Shown here piece after piece: positions 5,249 to 61,566 of a stretch of 64,000 nucleotides of DNA. The notes under the pieces are model-generated. The model saw nothing but the letters and a program-made list of their open reading frames with translations. It was not told where the DNA came from and did no database searches. Position 1 is the stretch's first letter. Every line of letters starts with the position of its first letter. A program made the translations under genes and the position numbers. The stretch comes from Desulfurococcaceae archaeon (GTDB lineage: Archaea; Thermoproteota; Thermoprotei_A; Sulfolobales; NBVN01). The stretch covers positions 3,840 through 67,839 of the forward strand of contig JAJHQJ010000002.1 in NCBI GenBank assembly GCA_020833415.1. Reading direction: 5' to 3'.

Positions 5249-5291
5249 CTAAGTGAGGGTTACTACTCCATCAGCATATAGTTTGTCCTAG

Positions 5292-6265
5292 ATGCTCATT
5301 CTCATTGGTTCATGTTTATTTATCACATCTAGGGACTTCCTCCTCTTCCACTCCTTCACTGATAGCACTGCTAGCTCGAGAGTGGGGTCACAGGGCATCG
5401 GGGTGAACGACACGCACCCCTTGAGAGTTAGATACCTTCTCTCGAGGCTCAGTACAGCTACTACGTCTCTACCAGACTATAAATTCACAATTCTGACATT
5501 TGAGTTGCCTCAGGACATTGCCCCCCATCAGCTTAGAGTTGCAGAGAGGGCATGTAGAGGAGGTGTTTCTCGGGTCTACTTTAGCCACGGGGACTCCTCT
5601 CTCCGAGCACTCCTCCTCAATAGCTTTAACCATACCTCTGAACCTTGCTTGGTATATCCTATGCCTTAGCACCGGGTCTCTAACATCCCTAATCATATTC
5701 CTTGAGTATTGCTTAGGAAGCTTCTCCAACACAACCACCGCATTGATATTTTTGGCTCTGTTAGAAACTATATCCGCAATTTTTAACCTAATACCACGCT
5801 CTCTACCACGGATGACTCCATAAACATATCCATTACCCTTAACACTCTGCGCAACCTCTCTATACGTAGCATAACCGATAGTAATCCTCTTAATCTCTGT
5901 CTCAAGGATGTACACCCTATCGAGAACCTTAACAGCTACATTATCCTCATTAACATCAACAGAAATAGCATGTTTAACACCATTTTCATCGACATTAATG
6001 ATTCTGCGAACACGAAGTATATTGATGACCTCCTACGTCTATAGTCAATCTTTATCTTCGGCTGTGTTCTCAGAGCCCAGTCACTGCTAATGTATCTCTA
6101 ATAAAGTTTGTGAAGTACTAGCTCTATTGGTATCCAACTCCTGTGGGTGTAGACGAGGGTTGTTGCACATCCTACGCGCTTCCACAGGTGGTCATCTAGC
6201 CATATACTGACCTTCCTAACCTCAGGCCTGTATTCTTTAGAAGTGCAGTACTGCGTCAGGTACTG
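5292..6265 (-). pseudogene. tnpB: TnpB (IS605 OrfB family) pseudogene with several frameshifts and stops
   Basis: Track ORF 5469..5915 carries ...VAKVDPRNTSSTCPLCNSKL...LKCQNCEF. My translations show the N-terminal part (KIKIDYRR / NILRVRRIINVDENGVKHAISVDVNEDNVAVKVLDRVYILE) and the C-terminal part (SGRDVVAVLSLERRY...) in other frames. Confidence 0.75.
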
Positions 6266-6268
6266 TAC

Positions 6269-6529
6269 CTACCTCTCCAGGTTGCTCCTCCGGTCTGAGG
6301 AGCTCACATGTGCATAGATAACTGCTCCGATCTCTTTGCTTATTGGCAAACCCTCAGCAATCCTCCTAACCTCGCTCTCGGGGACCCTATACTTACCACC
6401 AGCAGTCCTGATAGCCCTAATCCTACCCTCCCTAACCCACCTAGATAGAGTGGAGTAGCTAATACCAAGACTCCGACAGACCTCCCTAGGTCTCAGCAAC
6501 CTCTCCGGAGACCCCAAAATAGCTGGCAC
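6269..6529 (-). pseudogene. tnpA: Truncated IS607-type serine recombinase TnpA (MerR-like HTH plus only the first residues of the catalytic domain)
   Basis: 86 aa: ...LRPREVCRSLGISYSTLSRWVREGRIRAIRTAGGKYRVPESEV...AVIYAHVSSSDRRSNLER, then a stop. Normal IS607 TnpA proteins are roughly twice as long. Confidence 0.7.
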
Positions 6530-6736
6530 AGGTAATAATAGATAGAACGATGGGATTAGAGCTTATAAACCTAACTCCTAGACATCAACTACGAAACAGC
6601 CCCTATTGGGGATAACCTTGTAGACATCTCCCCTAAACGAGTTCCTCCAGCCGATATCGGTACCCGGTGGAATGAGGTCTGCTTAGCGATGTTAAGCAGC
6701 CTCTGTGCCGCTATTTTGAAGAGCCATAGTGAAACT

Positions 6737-6925
6737 GCTTTGTAGGTTTATAAGGGTTGATGCTACCCTGTGAGACTCTGAGGGTGACTCCAGGCGCTCA
6801 AGATGTGGGGTCTCCGGGGTGGCCCCGAACGCCCCTAAGGCGGATGCAGCCCCAAGGAGCGATGCGGGGGAAGAGATGAGGTGATGACCATAGAACAACA
6901 TAGACTCACATAAGAGCTGAACTCC
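6737..6925 (+). mobile_element. Internally deleted TnpB element (left end plus omega-RNA-like right end), copy 1
   Basis: GGTTTATAAGGGTTGATGCTACCCTGTGAG... matches the 5-prime end of the intact tnpB at 38208. ...CTCAAGATGTGGGGTCTCCGGGGTGGCCCCGAACGCCCC...GAGCTGAACTCC matches its 3-prime end (39330-39466). Confidence 0.8.
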
Positions 6926-6982
6926 CGTCCCTGTAAGGGATATAAGGTAGGGTAGGAAAAAGTATTCTGGTGTGGTAACCAC

Positions 6983-9248: not shown

Positions 9249-9652
9249 TGGATGAGGTATACGCCTCGTTGACGTAGACTAACGTAAAGCCTAAACTGTT
9301 ATGACCGTAGACATCAACCTCGATAGTGTAACGCTAGCCGCGTTTACTAACTGAAAGCCTCGCCATTCATGGCGGGGAGGAGGTCAGCCCTGGTGGCAGG
9401 TTGCTCAGACTGAAGAGGTTTAGAGCACCTCACAGGAAGATGCTAGCTCGTAAGATCTAAGTTGAGAGAATTAGAGGAATTACCCTAAGTCGTGGGGATT
9501 CGTTAAGGGTGTTAAGAAGGTTGTTGAGAAGCGTAGCGAGATAATCAAGAGCATCTCCTGGGACTGCGCCCACAGAGCAGTAGACATAGTCACTGAGCTG
9601 GCATTCAAACAATGAAAATCTATTAAACTATATGAAGCTGACCTTCTAGAGG
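9249..9652 (+). pseudogene. tnpB: TnpB pseudogene fragment (central portion) interrupted by a hairpin repeat
   Basis: Own translation: ...VKPKLLMTVDINLDSVTLAAFT [insert] PGGRLLRLKRFRAPHRKMLARKI*VERI...ISWDCAHRAVDIVTELAFK. This parallels residues VKPLKPRTVMAIDLNFDNVTLAIFALSGRLLKLKRFKTPHRRILTHRIWIERI...ISWDYAHKLGDLVAELALK of the intact copy. Stops and frameshifts are present. Confidence 0.7.
9348..9388 (+). repeat. Short hairpin repeat (about 40 bp), copy inserted inside the TnpB pseudogene
   Basis: TAACTGAAAGCCTCGCCATTCATGGCGGGGAGGAGGTCAGC preceded by TTAC (9344-9347). The stem carries a compensatory C-to-A / G-to-T pair relative to other copies. Confidence 0.85.
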
Positions 9653-9817
9653 TATGTGGGTTTTCTCAGGTCCTTCCCATCCTAGACAGACTTCGCAAAC
9701 AGAGAACAGCCCATTTTATGATGGTCTTTCCCTTAGCAGTAATCGCGTTAACTAGGGTTCAGTTAAGCATACTAACGTTCGATTTATGACTACTCTAACG
9801 TAGGAGAGTCCCGGAGA

Positions 9818-13402: not shown

Positions 13403-13412
13403 CCTTTGCTAC

Positions 13413-13451
13413 AACTGAAGGCCTCGCCCTTTAGGGCGGGGAAGAGGTAGG
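13413..13451 (+). repeat. Short hairpin repeat, copy b
   Basis: AACTGAAGGCCTCGCCCTTTAGGGCGGGGAAGAGGTAGG, 10 nt after the rps19 stop. Its purine-rich right end abuts the ATG of the next ORF. Confidence 0.8.
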
Positions 13452-17412: not shown

Positions 17413-17432
17413 CAAATTCCCAGCGGGTTTAC

Positions 17433-17472
<40 letters not shown>

Positions 17473-31192: not shown

Positions 31193-31446
31193 GGGGTTCA
31201 GCTCTCATATAAGTTCATGTAACTCGATGTCATCGCCTCATCTCCGTTCCCCCGCACCCCGCTCGGGGCCTCACCGGCTTGGGGGTGTTCAGGGCCACCC
31301 TAGGGACCCCGCATCTTGAGTGCTTGGAGCCACCCTCGGGGAGGGCCCTTACCTTCAGAGCCTCAACAACTACAGGTTCTCCATCCCTCACATGGTAGCT
31401 TACCGACGTCATAAAGTACCAAACCTTATAAACCTAGGTGAAAGTC
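31193..31446 (-). mobile_element. Internally deleted TnpB element, copy 2
   Basis: The minus strand reads AGGTTTATAAGGTTTGG...ATGACGTCGGTAAGCTACCATGTGAGGGATGGAGAACCTGTAGTTGTTGAGGCTCTGAAGGTAAGGGCCCTCCCCGAGGGTGGC | ...CTCAAGATGCGGGGTCCCTAGGGTGGCCC...GAGAGCTGAACCCC, i.e. the 5-prime and 3-prime ends of the tnpB element. Confidence 0.85.
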
Positions 31447-31474
31447 AGAGAAGCAGCTACAGGCTAGTTGCACA

Positions 31475-31719
31475 GCTGACCCCTTCCCCGCTCTGAAGGG
31501 CAGGGGTTGCCCGCATCTATTCGGGTCTACATCTGCGGGGCAGTTGGGGTGATCAGAGGTTCCTCCATTACATTTTCGTTACGTAGTTGCCTATTCTGCA
31601 TCCCCGTGGAGGGCTTAGGGGTAACCACATCCACGTAACCCCATCATCAAAACCATAGAATAGAGAAAGATTATAAGCCTTCCCCCATATTCCCGCCTTA
31701 AAAGGCTAGGCTTTCAGTT
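31475..31719 (-). repeat. Long form (about 245 bp) of the hairpin-repeat family, copy 2
   Basis: Bounded by GCTGACCCCTTCCCCGCTCTGAAGGGCAGGGG at one end and CCGCCTTAAAAGGCTAGGCTTTCAGTT|GCAA at the other. Internal blocks are shared with 44200-44446. Overlaps the moaE stop. Confidence 0.8.
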
Positions 31720-32407
31720 GCAATCTAGTACCATCACCAAGTACCCAGAATACGCCGTCATCTCTAAGCTCCTTCTTCCATATGGCTGACTCGTGTTTAA
31801 CTCTCTCAACGATTTCCCTAAGGGCCTCCACTACCTCCCTCCTCCCACGGCCCACTACTCCTGCTGCGAATACCACAGTACCTGGTTTGAACTCCCCTAC
31901 ACTATGGTATATTAAGACCGCCTTTAGTTTAGCCTTAGATTCCACCTCCTTTGCTATTCTATTTAGAGCCTCCTCTGTAAACCTCTCGTGGTACTCGTAG
32001 ACGAGCTTCTCAACTCTCCCCCCATCTACATACTCCTTAACCACTCCGAAGTAAGTTGCTACAGCCCCGCTCTCGCTATCTACGTAGCTTAGAAGCTCCC
32101 TCAGGAAGTCGTCAACAGGTACCTGCTCACCTAGGACAAGCTTAGCCCGGGATACTCCCCCTGCCGAGGGGGGTACTATGTCTACCCTAGGATCCTCGCA
32201 TACGTTCAGAATAGCCTCTCTACTACCTACCAACCTCCCTCTATGGATTAGCAGGACGTAGCCTAGCCTGGTGAGCTCGCTTAGTCTACCCCTTCTCTCT
32301 AGGACCTCGAGGATATCAGAGGAAGTGATCTCACATCCATCTACATCGACCTCCTCGTACTCTATCCCCGCAAGTTCCTTCAGTAAGGCGTAGTACTTTA
32401 GCCTAAT
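31706..32407 (-). CDS. moaE: MoaD-MoaE fusion (molybdopterin synthase small and large subunit domains), start uncertain
   Basis: Track ORF 31706..32233 is MoaE-like (...ERVKHESAIWKKE...). Upstream in the same frame I read IRLKYYALLKELAGIEYEEVDVDG...LLIHRGRLVGSREAILNVCEDPRVDIVPPSAGG, a MoaD/ThiS-like domain ending in GG. The only candidate start there is ATT at 32405-32407. Confidence 0.75.
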   Translation of the reverse strand: MRLKYYALLKELAGIEYEEVDVDGCEITSSDILEVLERRGRLSELTRLGYVLLIHRGRLVGSREAILNVCEDPRVDIVPPSAGGVSRAKLVLGEQVPVDDFLRELLSYVDSESGAVATYFGVVKEYVDGGRVEKLVYEYHERFTEEALNRIAKEVESKAKLKAVLIYHSVGEFKPGTVVFAAGVVGRGRREVVEALREIVERVKHESAIWKKELRDDGVFWVLGDGTRLQLKA

Positions 32408-37885: not shown

Positions 37886-37974
37886 CTAACCTCTCCGTGC
37901 TCCCGAAGCATAGCTACTAGTAGAAATAGCAGCTAAATAGTGTTTAAAGAGGACAGCTGTAGTATGGAGCCTTT

Positions 37975-38140
37975 CGTAGCTGTTTCTAGTTTCATATAGG
38001 TTCATGTGGTTTGATGCTACTCCTCCGCTATTATCACTACGTGTACTCTCTTGCCGTACAGTGGTTTTACCTCGGGTTGGTACTTCGCTAGCAGGTATAG
38101 GACTACTGTCCCACCCCTGAACTTTATTACGGAGCACTCG
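37975..38140 (-). mobile_element. Remnant of a TnpB-element right end
   Basis: The minus strand reads ...GTAGCATCAAACCACATGAACCTATATGAAACTAGAAAC, resembling ...ACATCAAGCTATATGAACCTATATGAGAGCTGAAC of the intact element. The track ORF 37886..38137 lies in it. Confidence 0.45.
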
Positions 38141-38207
38141 GCATATGCGAATCTAGCCACGCTATCATAGAAACACTTTAAGTACTTCTAGTTACATAGG
38201 TATGTAG

Positions 38208-39461
38208 GTGAGCTACCCTGTGAGGGGTGAAGAGCCCGTTGTTATAGAGGCTCTTAAGGTGAGGGCTCTCCCCGAGGGTAGCTGTGACCGTCTACTTGAG
38301 TTCCTGATTCTCTATCGCGATGCCGTCCAGATGGTAGTCGACAGGGTCTGGAGTCTAGACACTAAGCTATCCAAGAAGAAGTTACATAGGCTGTTCTACA
38401 GCGACCTAATGTCTATGGGTTTTAGAGCTCACCACGCTAAGGAGGTATATATGTACGCTAAGAGCCTGGTGGAGTCGGCTAGGGGTAACGGCGGTAGAAA
38501 GCCTGTCCTCAGGAGGTTGAGTGCTAGGGTGGATAGGTACGACTACAGACTGGATTTAGACAGCATGACACTAACACTGAAGCTCCACAGCGGCTATGAG
38601 GCTAGGCTAAAGCTAGTGACATCGAGGGAGAGGGTCGAGAGGTTCAGGGGTTGGAGCAACTACGAGCTAGTTGTGAAGTACGATAAGGGAGAGTTTTGGG
38701 TCTCAATCTACTTTAGGAGAGCTGTTAAACCGTTGAAGCCCAGAACGGTAATGGCAATAGACCTGAACTTCGACAACGTAACGTTAGCAATATTCGCCCT
38801 TAGCGGTAGACTACTCAAATTGAAGAGGTTTAAGACTCCCCACAGGAGGATCCTGACCCACAGGATATGGATTGAGAGGATCCAGGAGAGGTACCCGAGG
38901 TCGTGGAGGTTCATCAAGGGCGTTAGGAGGGCTATCGAGAGGCATGGTAAAAGGATTAGGAGTATCTCGTGGGACTACGCCCATAAATTGGGGGACTTAG
39001 TGGCTGAGCTAGCACTCAAGTACTGTTCATTAATTGTCCTCGAGGATCTGGAGAAGCTGAAAGAGAACGGTAAAGGAGATAGGGAGTTTAACAAGAGGCT
39101 GGGGCTGTGGTTCTACCGTAGGATACAGTTCTGCGTTGAGTACGAGGCTAAAGAGAGGAATCTTGAAGTAGTTAAGATTAATCCTAGGGGTACTTCTTCG
39201 AAGTGCCCTGGGTGCGGTGGTAAGCTAGTTGAGGACGGGCATAGGGTGCTGAGGTGTAGAAAATGCGGCTTCACGGGTGATAGAGACGTTATAGCAACGG
39301 TAAACCTATACAGGAGATACGTGTTCAAGTACTCAAGATGTGGGGTCCCCGGGGTGGCCCCGAACGCCCCCGAGCCCGATGAGGCCCCGAGCGGGGTGCG
39401 GGGGAACGGATATGAGGTGATGAAAACTACATCAAGCTATATGAACCTATATGAGAGCTGA
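38208..39461 (+). CDS. tnpB: TnpB (IS605 OrfB / IS1341-type RNA-guided nuclease family), apparently intact, no adjacent tnpA
   Basis: 417 aa; RuvC-like residues in VMAIDLN, LIVLEDL, GDRDVIATVNL; zinc finger CPGCGG...CRKCG. Confidence 0.9.
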   Translation: MSYPVRGEEPVVIEALKVRALPEGSCDRLLEFLILYRDAVQMVVDRVWSLDTKLSKKKLHRLFYSDLMSMGFRAHHAKEVYMYAKSLVESARGNGGRKPVLRRLSARVDRYDYRLDLDSMTLTLKLHSGYEARLKLVTSRERVERFRGWSNYELVVKYDKGEFWVSIYFRRAVKPLKPRTVMAIDLNFDNVTLAIFALSGRLLKLKRFKTPHRRILTHRIWIERIQERYPRSWRFIKGVRRAIERHGKRIRSISWDYAHKLGDLVAELALKYCSLIVLEDLEKLKENGKGDREFNKRLGLWFYRRIQFCVEYEAKERNLEVVKINPRGTSSKCPGCGGKLVEDGHRVLRCRKCGFTGDRDVIATVNLYRRYVFKYSRCGVPGVAPNAPEPDEAPSGVRGNGYEVMKTTSSYMNLYES

Positions 39462-39466
39462 ACCCC
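39330..39466 (+). ncRNA. Omega-RNA (reRNA)-like right-end module overlapping the tnpB 3-prime end
   Basis: A GC-rich hairpin-forming stretch (GGGGTCCCC, GGGGTGGCCCC, ...) ending GAGAGCTGAACCCC. The same module is retained in the deleted copies. By analogy with IS200/IS605 TnpB systems. Confidence 0.45.
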
Positions 39467-39519
39467 ACCTGGCTGAGGATTAGAGAATTTTCAGCTTTTA
39501 AACCCTGAGATAAGCCTAA

Positions 39520-40767
39520 GTGTGGTGGTACCCTACGGGAACTAGGGGTCCCGGCTACCGACTCCTAGTAGCCATTGCTATAGGGTTCGTCCTAGGGCTT
39601 GTAGTGGGGTTCTCCCTCCTCGGTGTACCGGAGGCTGCGAGGACTGATGCTGCGGCGTGGTTTAAGGCTCTGGGAGATATATTCGTGAGGTTGATAAGGA
39701 TCGTCATACCGCCGCTCATATTCTTCACTATAGCAACTGCGACAGCCTCCATAGCCGACTTGAGGAGGTTGGGGTTGGTGCTCCTCTGGATGCTAGTACT
39801 CTACATAGGTACATCAGCTCTAGCAGCCTTCTGGGGGGTGCTCGCCGGCCAGCTCTTCCAGCCCGGAGTTGGGGTAGGTCTTAAACCTCCAGCTGGCTAC
39901 ACGCCGCCTAAGCCGCCGTCAGCTATAGATATACTGATGAGCTTCTTCCAGGTAGACTTCAGCGCCTTACTAACGGTTGGCGGCGCTATGACTATGATAA
40001 TATTCGCTATAATCCTGGGGGTTGCCGTAGTACTACTAGGTGGAGAGGGTAGGAGGGTCTACTCGCTCCTCAAGCTAGCCTCAGACCTTATGATAAGGAT
40101 CGTTGGTATTATAATGTACTACGCACCTGTAGCTATATTCGGCTACGCAGCTTGGTTGATAGCTACTTACGGACCTCAGATGCTCGGTGCCTACGGTAAG
40201 TTCCTAGTATCTCAGTACTCGCTCACCTTGATGCACTTCTTCGTAATCTACAGCATAATAGTGGTTGCGGGAGGGCTTAACCCACTGAGGTACTTCAAGT
40301 ACCAGTCTACGCCGTTCGTCATAGCCTTTACGACGAGGTCGTCTGCAGTAACCCTACCCTACAACATGGAGGCTGCTAGGAGGATGGGGATCCCGGAGGA
40401 GGTCTTCCAGATAACCGTACCTATAGGAGCTACGGTAAACATGGACGGTACAGCCCTGTACCAAGCCCTCTCGGCCCTCTTCGTCGCACAGCTCTTCGGT
40501 ATCTCGCTTACACCAGCCCAAGTGGGTCTGGTGGTAGTGGCGGCTGTAGTAGGCTCGGTAGCTACGGCAGCCATACCTGGCGGTGGCACGATAATGCTAG
40601 CCTACGTTCTAGGCGTGGTTGGTCTACCTCTAGAGGGTGTGGGTATAATGATGGTTGTAGACCCCATAGCGGACGCCATGAGGACCGCCATAAATGCCTC
40701 GGGAGACAACGCCTGCTCAGTACTAATAACTAGGCTAGTAGGCCTAAGGCTCAGATCCTCGAGCTAA
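39520..40767 (+). CDS. Dicarboxylate/amino acid:cation symporter (GltP/GltPh family)
   Basis: 415 aa; ...TRSSAVTLPYNMEAA...NMDGTALYQ.... The start is uncertain because a TATA-like box lies only about 19 nt upstream of GTG 39520. Confidence 0.85.
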   Translation: MWWYPTGTRGPGYRLLVAIAIGFVLGLVVGFSLLGVPEAARTDAAAWFKALGDIFVRLIRIVIPPLIFFTIATATASIADLRRLGLVLLWMLVLYIGTSALAAFWGVLAGQLFQPGVGVGLKPPAGYTPPKPPSAIDILMSFFQVDFSALLTVGGAMTMIIFAIILGVAVVLLGGEGRRVYSLLKLASDLMIRIVGIIMYYAPVAIFGYAAWLIATYGPQMLGAYGKFLVSQYSLTLMHFFVIYSIIVVAGGLNPLRYFKYQSTPFVIAFTTRSSAVTLPYNMEAARRMGIPEEVFQITVPIGATVNMDGTALYQALSALFVAQLFGISLTPAQVGLVVVAAVVGSVATAAIPGGGTIMLAYVLGVVGLPLEGVGIMMVVDPIADAMRTAINASGDNACSVLITRLVGLRLRSSS

Positions 40768-43666: not shown

Positions 43667-43710
<44 letters not shown>

Positions 43711-43717
43711 TAGAGCT

Positions 43718-44038: not shown

Positions 44039-44199
44039 AGTACTCCCGGAAAACCACTCACCGGAGAGACCCTTATAAGGGTAGCCCCCCTTAGATAGAC
44101 CCTCCGACAGCTACCTACATATAGGTAGTTACTAAGCCACTCTAGCTTTCAAATCCCGTCTGTGTATTCACGGTATTGTGGTCAAAATATCGGGCTCTA

Positions 44200-44446
44200 C
44201 CTGACCTCCTTTCCGCCCTAGAGGGCGAGGATTCCCCTAGGGCGGCTCACAGGTTCCCCCCATCTATTCGGGGCTACATCTGTCATCTGGGAGGCATTCA
44301 GGGGGTCGGAGCTCCCCACATCCTGCCTAGGGTTCTACGCGGTTGCCTATCCCGCATCCCCGGAGGGCTTGGGGGCAAGCGCAAAACATCGGCACGGAGC
44401 TTATAAGCTTTCCCCATCCCCACCCTAAAGGGCGAGGCTTTCAGTT
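44200..44446 (-). repeat. Long form (about 247 bp) of the hairpin-repeat family, copy 1
   Basis: CTGACCTCCTTTCCGCCCTAGAGGGCGAGG ... CCCCACCCTAAAGGGCGAGGCTTTCAGTT|GTAA. Internal blocks (AAGCCCTCC.GGGGATGC, CAGATGTAG.CCCGAATAGATG, GCTTATAA) are shared with 31475-31719. Confidence 0.85.
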
Positions 44447-44583
44447 GTAACTATTGGAGTTCTATCCCGAATTCGACACGGTCTTACTATTTGTTAAGGA
44501 CCCACCTCTAGGCAAGAGCTACCACGATCTCTAGGTCAGCTCTTTAAATGCTACTATCGTGTGGGTGGGTTCTTGGAGTTCTA

Positions 44584-59488: not shown

Positions 59489-60391
59489 ATGAGATGCAGC
59501 TACCGGGTTAGGAGGGCGGTCAACCCGCTCTGCTACGTTGCCCTAGTATCGGTTACCGTAGTACTGATCCTAGCACTCCTACTGGACTCTACGGAGTTGT
59601 GGATAGCTTTGACGAGTCTAGGTGAGGAAGTTGCGTACGTAGGGTTGGCCCTAGCTGTTGTATACCTACTGGACCCTCTGGTAGGGTTACTAACTCTAGG
59701 GATAGTGCTACTCTCCGGCTCCACTAACATACTCCTGAAGTACTCTCTAAACATCCCCAGACCCCCTCCCGAGTACTGGCGCGTCCCAGCGGAGGGTCCT
59801 GGGTTTCCAAGCGGTCATACCCAGGTATCTGCAAGCTTCTGGAGCGGGTTAGCTGTGCTGACTCCGCGTAAGTGTACGGTGCCACTAGCTTTAGTAATTC
59901 CCGTAGCTGTAGCTTCCTCGAGGGTAGCTCTGGGGGTTCATAGTATTGCCGACGTAGCGGGTGGTTACGCGATAGGGGTAGCTATATCAGTTACCTCAGC
60001 CTACCTAGAAAGGTGTTTAGGTGGAGGATCCGTACCGTTAGTCTACTCCCTAGCGTTAGCTGCATCGTCGATCAGTAGCTACCTAGGCTACGACCTCAGG
60101 ACCTCCTCCTCGACCCTAGGCCTCTCCCTCGGACTCCTCCTACTTACCCCAAGGGTTAAGCACTTCATACGTTCAGTACACTCTATGAGTCTAACTGAGA
60201 GGTTCCTAGCCTTAGTTACCTCAGCGACTATGTCTCTATCTGTACTCTACCTGAGCAGACCTGCGGGGTACGTAGCTAGGGCTTCAGCATACCTACTCCT
60301 AGCTCTAGCCTTATACACAGTACCGGTAGCTTTCAGAAGGGTTAGGGCTGGAGCCCTTCGCGACTGTATCAAGTTTCATAGAGGTTTATAA
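59489..60391 (+). CDS. PAP2-family membrane phosphatase
   Basis: 300 aa; KYSLNIPRPP, PSGH, SRVALGVHSIADV motifs. The last codons and stop lie in a TnpB mini-element. Confidence 0.8.
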   Translation: MRCSYRVRRAVNPLCYVALVSVTVVLILALLLDSTELWIALTSLGEEVAYVGLALAVVYLLDPLVGLLTLGIVLLSGSTNILLKYSLNIPRPPPEYWRVPAEGPGFPSGHTQVSASFWSGLAVLTPRKCTVPLALVIPVAVASSRVALGVHSIADVAGGYAIGVAISVTSAYLERCLGGGSVPLVYSLALAASSISSYLGYDLRTSSSTLGLSLGLLLLTPRVKHFIRSVHSMSLTERFLALVTSATMSLSVLYLSRPAGYVARASAYLLLALALYTVPVAFRRVRAGALRDCIKFHRGL

Positions 60392-60661
60392 GGGTTGTCG
60401 GTGCTTCCCTTATCGGGGAACCGCCTCGAGATGCGGGTATAGACCTAAGAGAGGCGTGTTTTGAGGGGGAGTCAGGATGCGGGGGTTTCCCCACAGCAAT
60501 GACCCTGAGAGAACGATGAGGGGGGAGCTGTGGGTAGGGGTTACCCCGAGGGGGTGGAGTCCTGTGATGTGGATCCCGATGAAAGGGGTCCCGAGGGCTG
60601 TGAAGCCAAGGGTAGAGGACTTGGTATCAAAGAATATCAAGCCCTATGAAACCTGAACTCC
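60373..60661 (+). mobile_element. Internally deleted TnpB-type element, divergent copy 3
   Basis: Starts GTTTCATAGAGGTTTATAAGGGTTG (as at 6737) and ends ...CCTATGAAACCTGAACTCC (as ...GAGCTGAACTCC). The GC-rich hairpin-rich interior contains GGGGGTTTCCCC and GGGGTTACCCC. Confidence 0.6.
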
Positions 60662-60666
60662 GACTA

Positions 60667-61566
60667 CTAGACCTCTCTAGGTAGCTTTACAGACTCCCTC
60701 AGTAGCTCTAGGAAGCTCCGCTTAGGCTCCTTTGGTGTGGTGAACTCTATAACGAGCTCCACTACGCTGGGGGTTGAGAGCTTTACTGAGTCAGCTATAT
60801 ACGACCTTATCTCCTCAAGCTCACCGAGTTTTGTTGAGGGGTCTACCTCGAGCTGTAGTAGTATGAAGTACCTACCAGGTTCTAGGACTAGGGATCTCAC
60901 ACTATTTACGTCTAATACCCTGGGGTCGGAGAGAGCTACCTTAACTACCCTACCTACAACATCCCTAGGGGCTGAGATCCCTAGGAGTGTAACTACGTAT
61001 CTATAGCCTAAGCTAGCTGAGGATAAGGCTATTACAGTAGCTACAGCGAACGCCCCGTAGCCGTCGATCAGCGGGTTCCCCGAGGATATGGCGACTACTG
61101 TTGCGATGTCTCCGAGAGTATCAGCTAGGTTCTCGGCTACAGTAGCTGTAAGTGCTGGGTGCTTACCAGTACTCCTACTCTCCCTAACGGCGTCTACCAG
61201 GACTAGGATGTTAAGGGTTAGGGATAGGTACATCAGGTACCTAGAGGTTTCGGAGACCTCAACTACGGGGTTAGCCAATCTGCTAATACCCTCACTAACA
61301 GCTCCTAGAAAGAGGTATGCTACAGCTAAAACTATAGCAGCAAAGCCTGTTACGTAGATAGCTCTACCGTAGCCGAAGGGGTACCTCAGGGAGGGTCTAA
61401 GCCTCTGTACAGCTATGCCCAGAGCTATGAGTCCTGAGAATGTGAGGTCGGCTAGTGAGTGGAGGAGTGAGGCGTCTATGGAGGCTGATACCGAGTTTAT
61501 GCTTGCAAAGTACTTCAGTAGGACTAATACAACATTAACTGCTAGCCCTAGGTATACGGGTCTCAA
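60667..61566 (-). CDS. Cation diffusion facilitator (CDF) family transporter
   Basis: 299 aa; ...HSLADLTFSG...LADTLGDIATVV... plus a C-terminal cytoplasmic domain. Confidence 0.8.
   Translation of the reverse strand: MRPVYLGLAVNVVLVLLKYFASINSVSASIDASLLHSLADLTFSGLIALGIAVQRLRPSLRYPFGYGRAIYVTGFAAIVLAVAYLFLGAVSEGISRLANPVVEVSETSRYLMYLSLTLNILVLVDAVRESRSTGKHPALTATVAENLADTLGDIATVVAISSGNPLIDGYGAFAVATVIALSSASLGYRYVVTLLGISAPRDVVGRVVKVALSDPRVLDVNSVRSLVLEPGRYFILLQLEVDPSTKLGELEEIRSYIADSVKLSTPSVVELVIEFTTPKEPKRSFLELLRESVKLPREV

Follow-up and report, generated by a model that had tools for sequence, protein, structure and literature searches.

Does the stand-alone tnpB gene in a 64,000-nucleotide stretch of DNA from a Desulfurococcaceae archaeon (assembly GCA_020833415.1, contig JAJHQJ010000002.1, positions 3,840–67,839; hereafter, the window) belong to a mobile element that can be delimited and classified, and could its product be served by the several guide-RNA-like loci that lie around it? 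In the analysis described here, we conclude that positions 37969–39466 of the window are likely to constitute a tnpA-less, non-autonomous insertion sequence of the IS607 family, with an intact gene for the RNA-guided nuclease TnpB, a probable guide-RNA right end, and gene-less derivatives. The host group of the element is a hot-spring crenarchaeon of the Desulfurococcaceae/Acidilobus type.

The extent of the element was defined by comparison with 87 related loci (L001–L087), drawn from 7 GTDB metagenome-assembled genomes (MAGs; Desulfurococcaceae, Ignisphaera, and Acidilobus) and 80 metagenome contigs. On the right, similarity stops after ...GAGAGCTGAACCCC in 64 of 66 distinct related copies, with unrelated DNA beyond, placing the boundary at 39466, where the terminal letters read ...CTGAACCCC; on the left, conservation extends 239 nucleotides (nt) 5′ of the start codon, as far as an invariant GCC at 37969. 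Flanks are unrelated at both sides of the element (57–66 copies), metagenome contigs diverge or break at ~37967 and ~39466, and a 29-nt terminal pattern is found again at 31193–31221 on the reverse strand, with 0 matches expected by chance. No tnpA lies within the element in the window copy, in the 57 aligned copies, or in any of the 87 related loci; lacking a serine-recombinase tnpA of its own, the element cannot be more than a non-autonomous derivative. The original prediction was thus correct in describing a stand-alone TnpB, and its further statement that no tnpA lies nearby holds for the element but not for the window, in which a dead serine-recombinase tnpA occupies 6245–6502 on the reverse strand.

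The tnpB gene is intact and under purifying selection, with pairwise ratios of nonsynonymous to synonymous change (dN/dS) of 0.03–0.17 against 56 related copies. Its product of 417 amino acids (aa) matches Pfam PF07282 (2.6e-17, 63.2 bits; threshold 26.3) and passes the NCBIfam model NF040570, guided_TnpB, with 105.7 bits at a cutoff of 100; homologues at E < 1e-5 number 758, chiefly from hot-spring metagenomes, and the best of them is 93% identical. In a search of solved structures, the motifs IDLN (AIDLNF), LEDL, and GDRD—that is, D185, E279, and D360—aligned on the RuvC D/E/D residues of Cas12f, while CPGC...CRKC (C333, C336, C350, and C353) forms a C4 zinc finger, and all seven residues are invariant in an alignment with 30 homologues of 75–93% identity. 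A Foldseek comparison returned 47 significant fold matches, mostly to Cas12f, TnpB, Fanzor, and other Cas12 proteins, with Cas12f/TnpB on top. The claim that the enzyme is intact, with a full RuvC triad and zinc finger, is consequently borne out by models above their cutoffs and by residues invariant among homologues; inactivating RuvC substitutions, proposed earlier as a possible refutation, were sought by alignment with the Cas12f catalytic residues, and none was found.

The family assignment depends on the ends rather than on the gene. When the intact serine TnpA of L083 was used as a query, 4,351 relatives were retrieved, many of them named IS607 family transposase, with relatives in Acidilobus, Zestosphaera, Ignisphaera, Thermosphaera, and Desulfurococcaceae. 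Five autonomous IS607 copies carrying both tnpA and tnpB (L088–L092, from Acidilobus sp. 7A and Desulfurococcaceae MAGs) were compared with the window element: the left-end profile matches immediately 5′ of tnpA in all five (E 3.3e-8 to 2e-4), and the right-end profile matches their right ends (E 1.2e-3 to 4.8e-2). Four of them (L088–L091) begin with GCC, L092 having GCCC four bases further out, and all five finish with AAACCCC, the window element with GAACCCC. Matching dinucleotides are thus present at both termini, in the GCC of the left junction at 56 of 57 sites and in the final CC of 65 of 66 aligned right ends, between unrelated flanks and with no target-site duplication; their role in crossover would be that of an IS607 core. 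As these termini are homologous to those of serine-recombinase IS607 elements, the element is best described as a tnpA-less IS607 derivative and not, as originally predicted, as a member of IS200/IS605. A rearrangement at the left junction is suggested among the autonomous copies themselves, since L090/L091 and L092 (~2925–2935) share an identical TnpA element and right-side neighbours while differing, in different MAGs, in their left-side neighbours; L092 also has a 4-nt insertion, TTTA, after GCCC.

In place of a transposase gene, the element has a non-coding left end, and neither tnpA nor a remnant of it was found between the left end and tnpB. The possibility that the left end is itself a tnpA remnant or a small open reading frame (ORF) was rejected, as tblastn returned only noise and relatives contain a frameshifting indel, and that of a structured RNA was rejected for want of a supported fold. 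An 83-aa ORF runs antisense to the left end (37886–38137, reverse strand) and is probably spurious, because indels in relatives shift the frame in the same stretch. Close to the start codon lies a TATA-like box, at which most relatives read TTATAAG and which, judging by its position and conservation, is the probable promoter of a leaderless tnpB mRNA.

The junctions also bear on the target-adjacent motif (TAM) of the nuclease, which the original prediction had proposed to read from left-end flanks. GCC is invariant at 56 of 57 insertion sites in related copies, G never occurs at position -1, and information upstream of the left end amounts to ≤0.14 bit at each position but -1, with no 4–5 nt motif; in these copies the proposed check yields GCC itself and, apart from the missing G, no motif upstream of it. 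One nested insertion is informative as to the origin of this trinucleotide. In L083, the element interrupts an IS607 tnpA that is otherwise intact, within the part encoding the helix-turn-helix (665–841 and 2349–2440); its GCC falls where every intact homologue has the Gly codon GGC (RGYIKP), so that GCC can be target-derived. The right flank of this insertion is rearranged, apparently with the loss of ~14 nt relative to intact homologues, and an attempt to fix the crossover position from it was abandoned, because 0-nt and 3-nt joins are both in frame. GCC is likely the TAM, and CC the core dinucleotide. Three positions from the right-end boundary, the base is C or T and never G, a difference that would let the nuclease tell an occupied site from an empty one.

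In their anatomy, the last ~140 nt of the element are a presumptive guide-RNA scaffold. Among 57 copies, identity at third codon positions is ~0.61 along the gene and 0.78–0.87 over 39319–39466, indicating a nucleotide-level constraint beyond coding, and the part kept in the derivatives is exactly 39327–39466. RNAalifold predicts two conserved GC-rich hairpins here, with 97.9% of cells paired in 66 sequences and double changes at 3 pairs, a number reached by 4 of 500 shuffles; a covariation scan of all column pairs gave scattered signals only. In an Rfam search no family reached either threshold, and no omega-RNA-like or HgcC-type match was obtained. The right end fits the anatomy of an omega-RNA scaffold, and the RNA itself is presumed on this ground and by analogy with other TnpB systems.

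A second constrained segment, an imperfect hairpin, lies at the other end of tnpB, just within the coding sequence. It has 98.9% of cells paired in 56 distinct sequences (37–64% in slid controls) and compensatory double changes at five pairs, reached by 3 of 500 shuffles, and identity at third codon positions is 0.92 in the first 30 nt of tnpB, against ~0.61 in the gene body. Miniature derivatives retain the hairpin, at times with a trimmed loop, and deletion joints in metagenome contigs spare its stem. The hairpin may slow translation of the leaderless mRNA, form a 5′ module of the RNA made from the derivatives, or act as a signal at the DNA level. A more ambitious proposal, which we consider unlikely, would make the miniature copies dedicated, separately promoted guide-RNA genes composed of TATA box, 5′ hairpin, and scaffold, with the hairpin as a previously undescribed omega-RNA module (a 5′ stabiliser or maturation signal, or else a translational brake) and GCC as an unusual, G/C-rich TAM.

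Searching the window with right- and left-end profiles recovered the element's own right end (39331–39466, E 1.5e-41; site A) and three further pairs of correctly oriented left and right ends, designated B, C, and D. None of the three contains an ORF; each consists of fused parental ends and occurs in many copies at unrelated sites, as is characteristic of palindrome-associated transposable elements (PATEs), and all carry an intact TATA-like TTTATAAGG box. In B, the counterparts of 38204–38283 and 39326–39466 abut and are 82% and 85% identical to the element, and the right-end profile matches 31321–31193 on the reverse strand (E 5.7e-36); in C it matches 6797–6925 (E 9.3e-26). B and C have the same deletion junction and therefore descend from a single deletion derivative that later spread. 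D belongs elsewhere: it matches the right-end profile of this element weakly (E 0.0028), its last 190 nt (60472–60661) are 84% identical to the 3′ end of tnpB and the right end of L088 and L089, and the TnpB of that parental lineage is only 28% identical to the window TnpB. Additional miniature copies occur in L073 and L078, D is high-copy in metagenomes, contigs of the source community contain many deletion joints (38226–38282 to 39327–39334), and metagenome depth over the right end rises to ~38x that of the flanks.

These results modify the earlier view that the same right-end module is retained at four other sites. Two of the sites, 31193–31330 and 6790–6925, are indeed derivatives of this kind, while 60400–60661 stems from another lineage, and 37975–38140, described as a divergent right-end module, is rather the left end of the element itself, of which only ~36 nt (an imperfect inverted repeat around 37990–38019, detected with the end profiles) repeat the right-end terminus.

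Putative guides were read from the flanks of the four right ends, with the guide length taken from other TnpB systems. At site C the guide probably begins one base earlier than first proposed, at 6926 (CGTCCC...). The 24 nt that follow each right end were compared with the window and the 87 related loci, and apart from the guide's own site the best matches did not exceed 15 nt with one mismatch. Each guide thus matches its own flank only, which fits homing, with the guide specifying the element's own insertion site, and not a many-target nuclease; the search for matches to the guides that had been proposed earlier thus gives, in these sequences, no support to multi-site targeting. The related suggestion that one nuclease is served by several right-end RNAs survives in part, in that gene-less right ends with differing flanks do exist. 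From their scaffolds, which are 84–85% identical to that of A, B and C could plausibly use the window TnpB in trans. D is probably unable to do so, since the TnpB of its lineage is so distant, and 37975–38140 falls away as well.

The following mechanism can be proposed. The tnpB gene would be transcribed as a leaderless mRNA from the TATA-like box ~30 nt upstream, and the 3′ 140 nt, together with roughly 16–20 nt of flank, would give rise to the omega RNA. A serine transposase acting in trans would excise the element at the CC core dinucleotides, of which one is part of the GCC at the left junction and the other closes the right end. The complex of TnpB and RNA would then cut the emptied site, consisting of GCC (the likely TAM) and the flank matching the guide, and recombinational repair would put the element back. 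B and C, each with its own TATA box and scaffold, may protect the sites that they occupy by borrowing, in trans, the window TnpB or one of its sisters, whereas D would depend on a TnpB from its own lineage.

Several observations weigh against this account. The right end bears a weak likeness to those of autonomous IS607 elements (E about 1e-3 to 5e-2), and TnpB identity is no higher than 27–28%. Under the IS607_TnpB model of NCBIfam (NF038280), the protein reaches 39.2 bits where 350 are required, and confidence in the AlphaFold model is low (mean pLDDT, the predicted local distance difference test, 59.5; RuvC segments 82–90), the model serving for fold recognition at the family level only. 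The target origin of GCC is read from a single nested insertion whose other flank is rearranged. Covariation support in the right end is weak to modest, because the copies, at 80–90% identity, are too alike; the GC-rich hairpins that had been noted in the 3′ 130 nt are predicted by the alignment fold, whereas a fold of the window sequence alone does not stand out from shuffles (z = -0.49), and none of the public RNA runs holds sequence of the element. No functional tnpA exists in the 64-kb window, whose only serine tnpA is a pseudogene. No empty-site allele was seen in contigs, which drop rare variants, of six hot-spring metagenome runs (X1–X4 at A and B; X1, X2, X5, and X6 at D). Finally, no identical copy is on record, the exact TnpB being absent from the assembly index and the nearest protein 93% identical; none of these observations points to current mobility.

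Some of these observations would be expected under other explanations. Were the element of the IS200/IS605 (IS1341) type, with a Y1 tyrosine TnpA mobilising it by single-stranded peel-and-paste, it should have a 4–5 nt TAM at the left and subterminal hairpins at both ends; tnpB-only elements are classically placed in the IS1341 group of IS200/IS605 (PMC3119063), and the NCBIfam IS200_TnpB model does give a weak match (35.6 bits, far from its cutoff of 425). We regard this as very unlikely, given that no such motif precedes the left end at 57 sites, that supported hairpins were not found near either terminus, that its termini share homology with those of serine-recombinase IS607 elements, and that no tnpA lies inside the element in the 87 related loci. 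The transposase remnants that were met are all of the serine type and no Y1 tnpA was met, though no exhaustive Y1 screen of the window was made. A different possibility is that the locus is a fossil, with an intact but stranded TnpB, no working transposase in the genome, and miniature copies that are fixed, untranscribed relics. The dead tnpA of the window, the decayed tnpB copy and dead IS607 element nearby, the 93% identity of the closest relative, with no identical copy on record, and the occupancy of A and B in X1–X4 (B is fixed in these 4 metagenome runs) and of D in X1, X2, and X5, with X6 lacking D's left flank and no empty allele seen, would all suit such a view. It is nevertheless improbable: tnpB is under strong purifying selection with all catalytic residues invariant, the right end and the 5′ hairpin show conservation at silent sites, copy number is high in the source metagenomes (as judged by right-end depth), the same taxa commonly possess intact IS607 tnpA genes, and rare empty alleles cannot show in contigs. 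Selection on the protein and on silent right-end sites argues that the system was functional in the recent past.

The miniature copies might instead be small RNA genes exapted by the host to regulate their neighbours (the symporter gene, rtcB, and a cation efflux gene), either with TnpB or with no protein. All three have kept their TATA-like box, they occupy intergenic positions beside housekeeping genes, and a PATE-derived RNA affects growth in Halobacterium (PMC4615843). The guides match their own flanks alone, however, the TATA box is merely inherited from the left ends of autonomous IS607 elements, where it is the promoter of tnpA, and the same forms occur at many unrelated metagenome sites, as mobile DNA would; host exaptation is accordingly a very improbable reading. 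A non-autonomous IS607 derivative with TnpB and offspring remains the description that we prefer.

Other repeated and decayed sequences of the window complete the picture (Table 1). The tnpA pseudogene of the dead element next to C (HTH_17 4.5e-13; YAHVSS...LER, then stop) is 40–43% identical to intact IS607 TnpA, and the tnpB remnant that follows (PF07282 3.5e-11) is 26–30% identical to other TnpBs; such a succession of helix-turn-helix and YAHVSS serine-recombinase pseudogene and tnpB remnant is the IS607 layout. The decayed tnpB fragment is split at 9347–9390 by a 44-nt short form of an unrelated repeat family and has a right-end trace at ~9609–9650. This second dispersed family starts with (C)AACTGAAAGCCTCGCC and ends with GG(A/G)GGTCAG, its termini form a hairpin, and it is multi-copy in metagenomes and also present in L016, L022, L028, L042, L052, L069, and L089. 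Beside D, a PAP2-family ORF (59489–60391, forward strand) enters the derivative by 39 nt and has its stop codon in the TTTATAAGG box of D; the insertion therefore replaced the original 3′ end of that gene.

Table 1. Features of the TnpB element and of related or repeated sequences, in window coordinates.
Feature	Position	Strand	Description
Complete element	37969–39466	+	1,498 bp; left end, tnpB, and right end; sharp conservation limits among 57–66 related copies
Left end	37969–38207	+	Non-coding, 239 nt; first ~53 nt common to autonomous IS607 elements
TATA-like box	38176–38183	+	CTTTAAGT; 25–32 nt upstream of GTG; column conserved in left-end alignment
tnpB	38208–39461	+	Intact, 417 aa, GTG start; D185 38760–38762, E279 39042–39044, D360 39285–39287, zinc finger C333–C353 39204–39266
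5′ hairpin	38212–38282	+	Conserved, imperfect, 18 bp; begins 4 nt after first base of start codon
Right-end core	39327–39466	+	Presumptive omega-RNA scaffold; overlaps last 45 codons of tnpB (374–417 and stop)
Putative guide A	39467–39486	+	ACCTGGCTGAGGATTAGAGA; flank of right end; upstream of sodium:dicarboxylate symporter gene (39520–40767)
Derivative B	31193–31464	-	272 bp; left end with intact TTTATAAGG box, 5′ hairpin, right-end core; from end profiles
Putative guide B	31192–31177	-	GTGCCGGAAAACGTGA
Derivative C	6723–6925	+	203 bp; upstream of rtcB; deletion junction as in B; shortened hairpin
Putative guide C	starts 6926	+	CGTCCCTGTAAGGGAT
Derivative D	60353–60661	+	309 bp; from another autonomous IS607 lineage; left-end start as in IS607 relatives
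Putative guide D	60662–60677	+	GACTACTAGACCTCTC
Decayed related tnpB fragment	9250–9660	+	69% nt identity to 38814–39019; tblastn aa 180–288 at 34%
Dead IS607 element	5290–6600	-	Serine-recombinase tnpA pseudogene 6245–6502, then tnpB remnant 5429–6032; beside copy C
Second repeat family, ~250-nt forms	44195–44455; 31470–31720	-	GCTTATAA box and GC-rich hairpins; TnpB right-end profile weak match, E 0.016
Second repeat family, short ~45-nt forms	9347–9390; 43667–43716; 17429–17471; 13410–13442		Fused ends

With boundaries and family fixed, the "orphan guide" loci that may plausibly act together with the window nuclease come to two and not four. The family is a clean example from nature of how tnpA-less IS607 derivatives, and their gene-less offspring, rely on components in trans. 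If active, the enzyme would be a compact, probably thermostable nuclease of 417 aa with a predicted TAM that is not T-rich, and hence of modest interest for genome editing. The element is otherwise ordinary, guide RNAs carried on PATEs and used in trans having already been described, and only the predicted GCC TAM and the 5′ hairpin are mildly unusual.

Among known systems, the closest comparison is with IS607 elements, in which the serine TnpA recombines at matching core dinucleotides that are included in the TAM of TnpB, as with the TGGG TAM and GG core of Clostridium (doi 10.1101/2023.11.20.567912). The window element resembles the autonomous copies L088–L092 in its left terminus, of which ~50 nt are homologous, and in its similar right terminus, and it shares with IS607 elements the lack of a target-site duplication and the placement of tnpB at the right, with a guide-RNA region (presumptive here) overlapping the 3′ end of the gene. 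Its start at GCC and finish at CC are analogous to the TGGG TAM and GG core of the Clostridium botulinum IS607 IStron, although core and TAM would here be CC and GCC instead of GG and TGGG. Autonomous IS607 elements differ in having tnpA where this element has 239 nt of non-coding left end, and the TnpBs of L088–L092, at 27–28% identity, have an N-terminal PF27234 match that the window TnpB lacks.

In its solo tnpB and its core-deleted, end-fused derivatives, the element is similar to IS1341-group elements of Haloquadratum and Halobacterium and to the PATEs of Geobacillus stearothermophilus. Haloarchaea are known to carry PATEs that stem from tnpB elements (PMC3119063), sense RNAs from the 3′ end of archaeal tnpB genes and PATE-derived RNAs have been detected (PMC4615843), and Geobacillus PATEs often encode omega RNAs on which TnpB must act in trans (PMC10055086); here, too, the derivatives keep the presumptive right-end RNA region, which would imply the use of TnpB in trans. 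Those elements have been described as IS200/IS605-type, with near-terminal palindromes and a Y1 TnpA, whereas the ends of the present element point to a serine transposase and its retained palindrome lies in the 5′ coding region of tnpB rather than near a terminus.

As for the enzyme, the RuvC D-E-D residues and C4 zinc finger are shared with ISDra2 TnpB (8EXA/8H1J), Sulfolobus islandicus SisTnpB1, and Cas12f, and a length of ~400 aa, together with a scaffold derived from the right end (putative here) and followed by a flank-derived guide, is common to the characterised TnpBs. Activity has been demonstrated for a TnpB of a thermophilic archaeon (doi 10.1101/2023.03.06.531077), and SisTnpB1, like the present enzyme, has a thermophilic archaeal host. 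Sequence similarity to TnpBs of solved structure is nonetheless very low (E 0.0055 to ISDra2), and, in contrast to the T-rich TAMs of characterised TnpBs (TTGAT and TTTAA), the TAM predicted here is the G/C-rich GCC.

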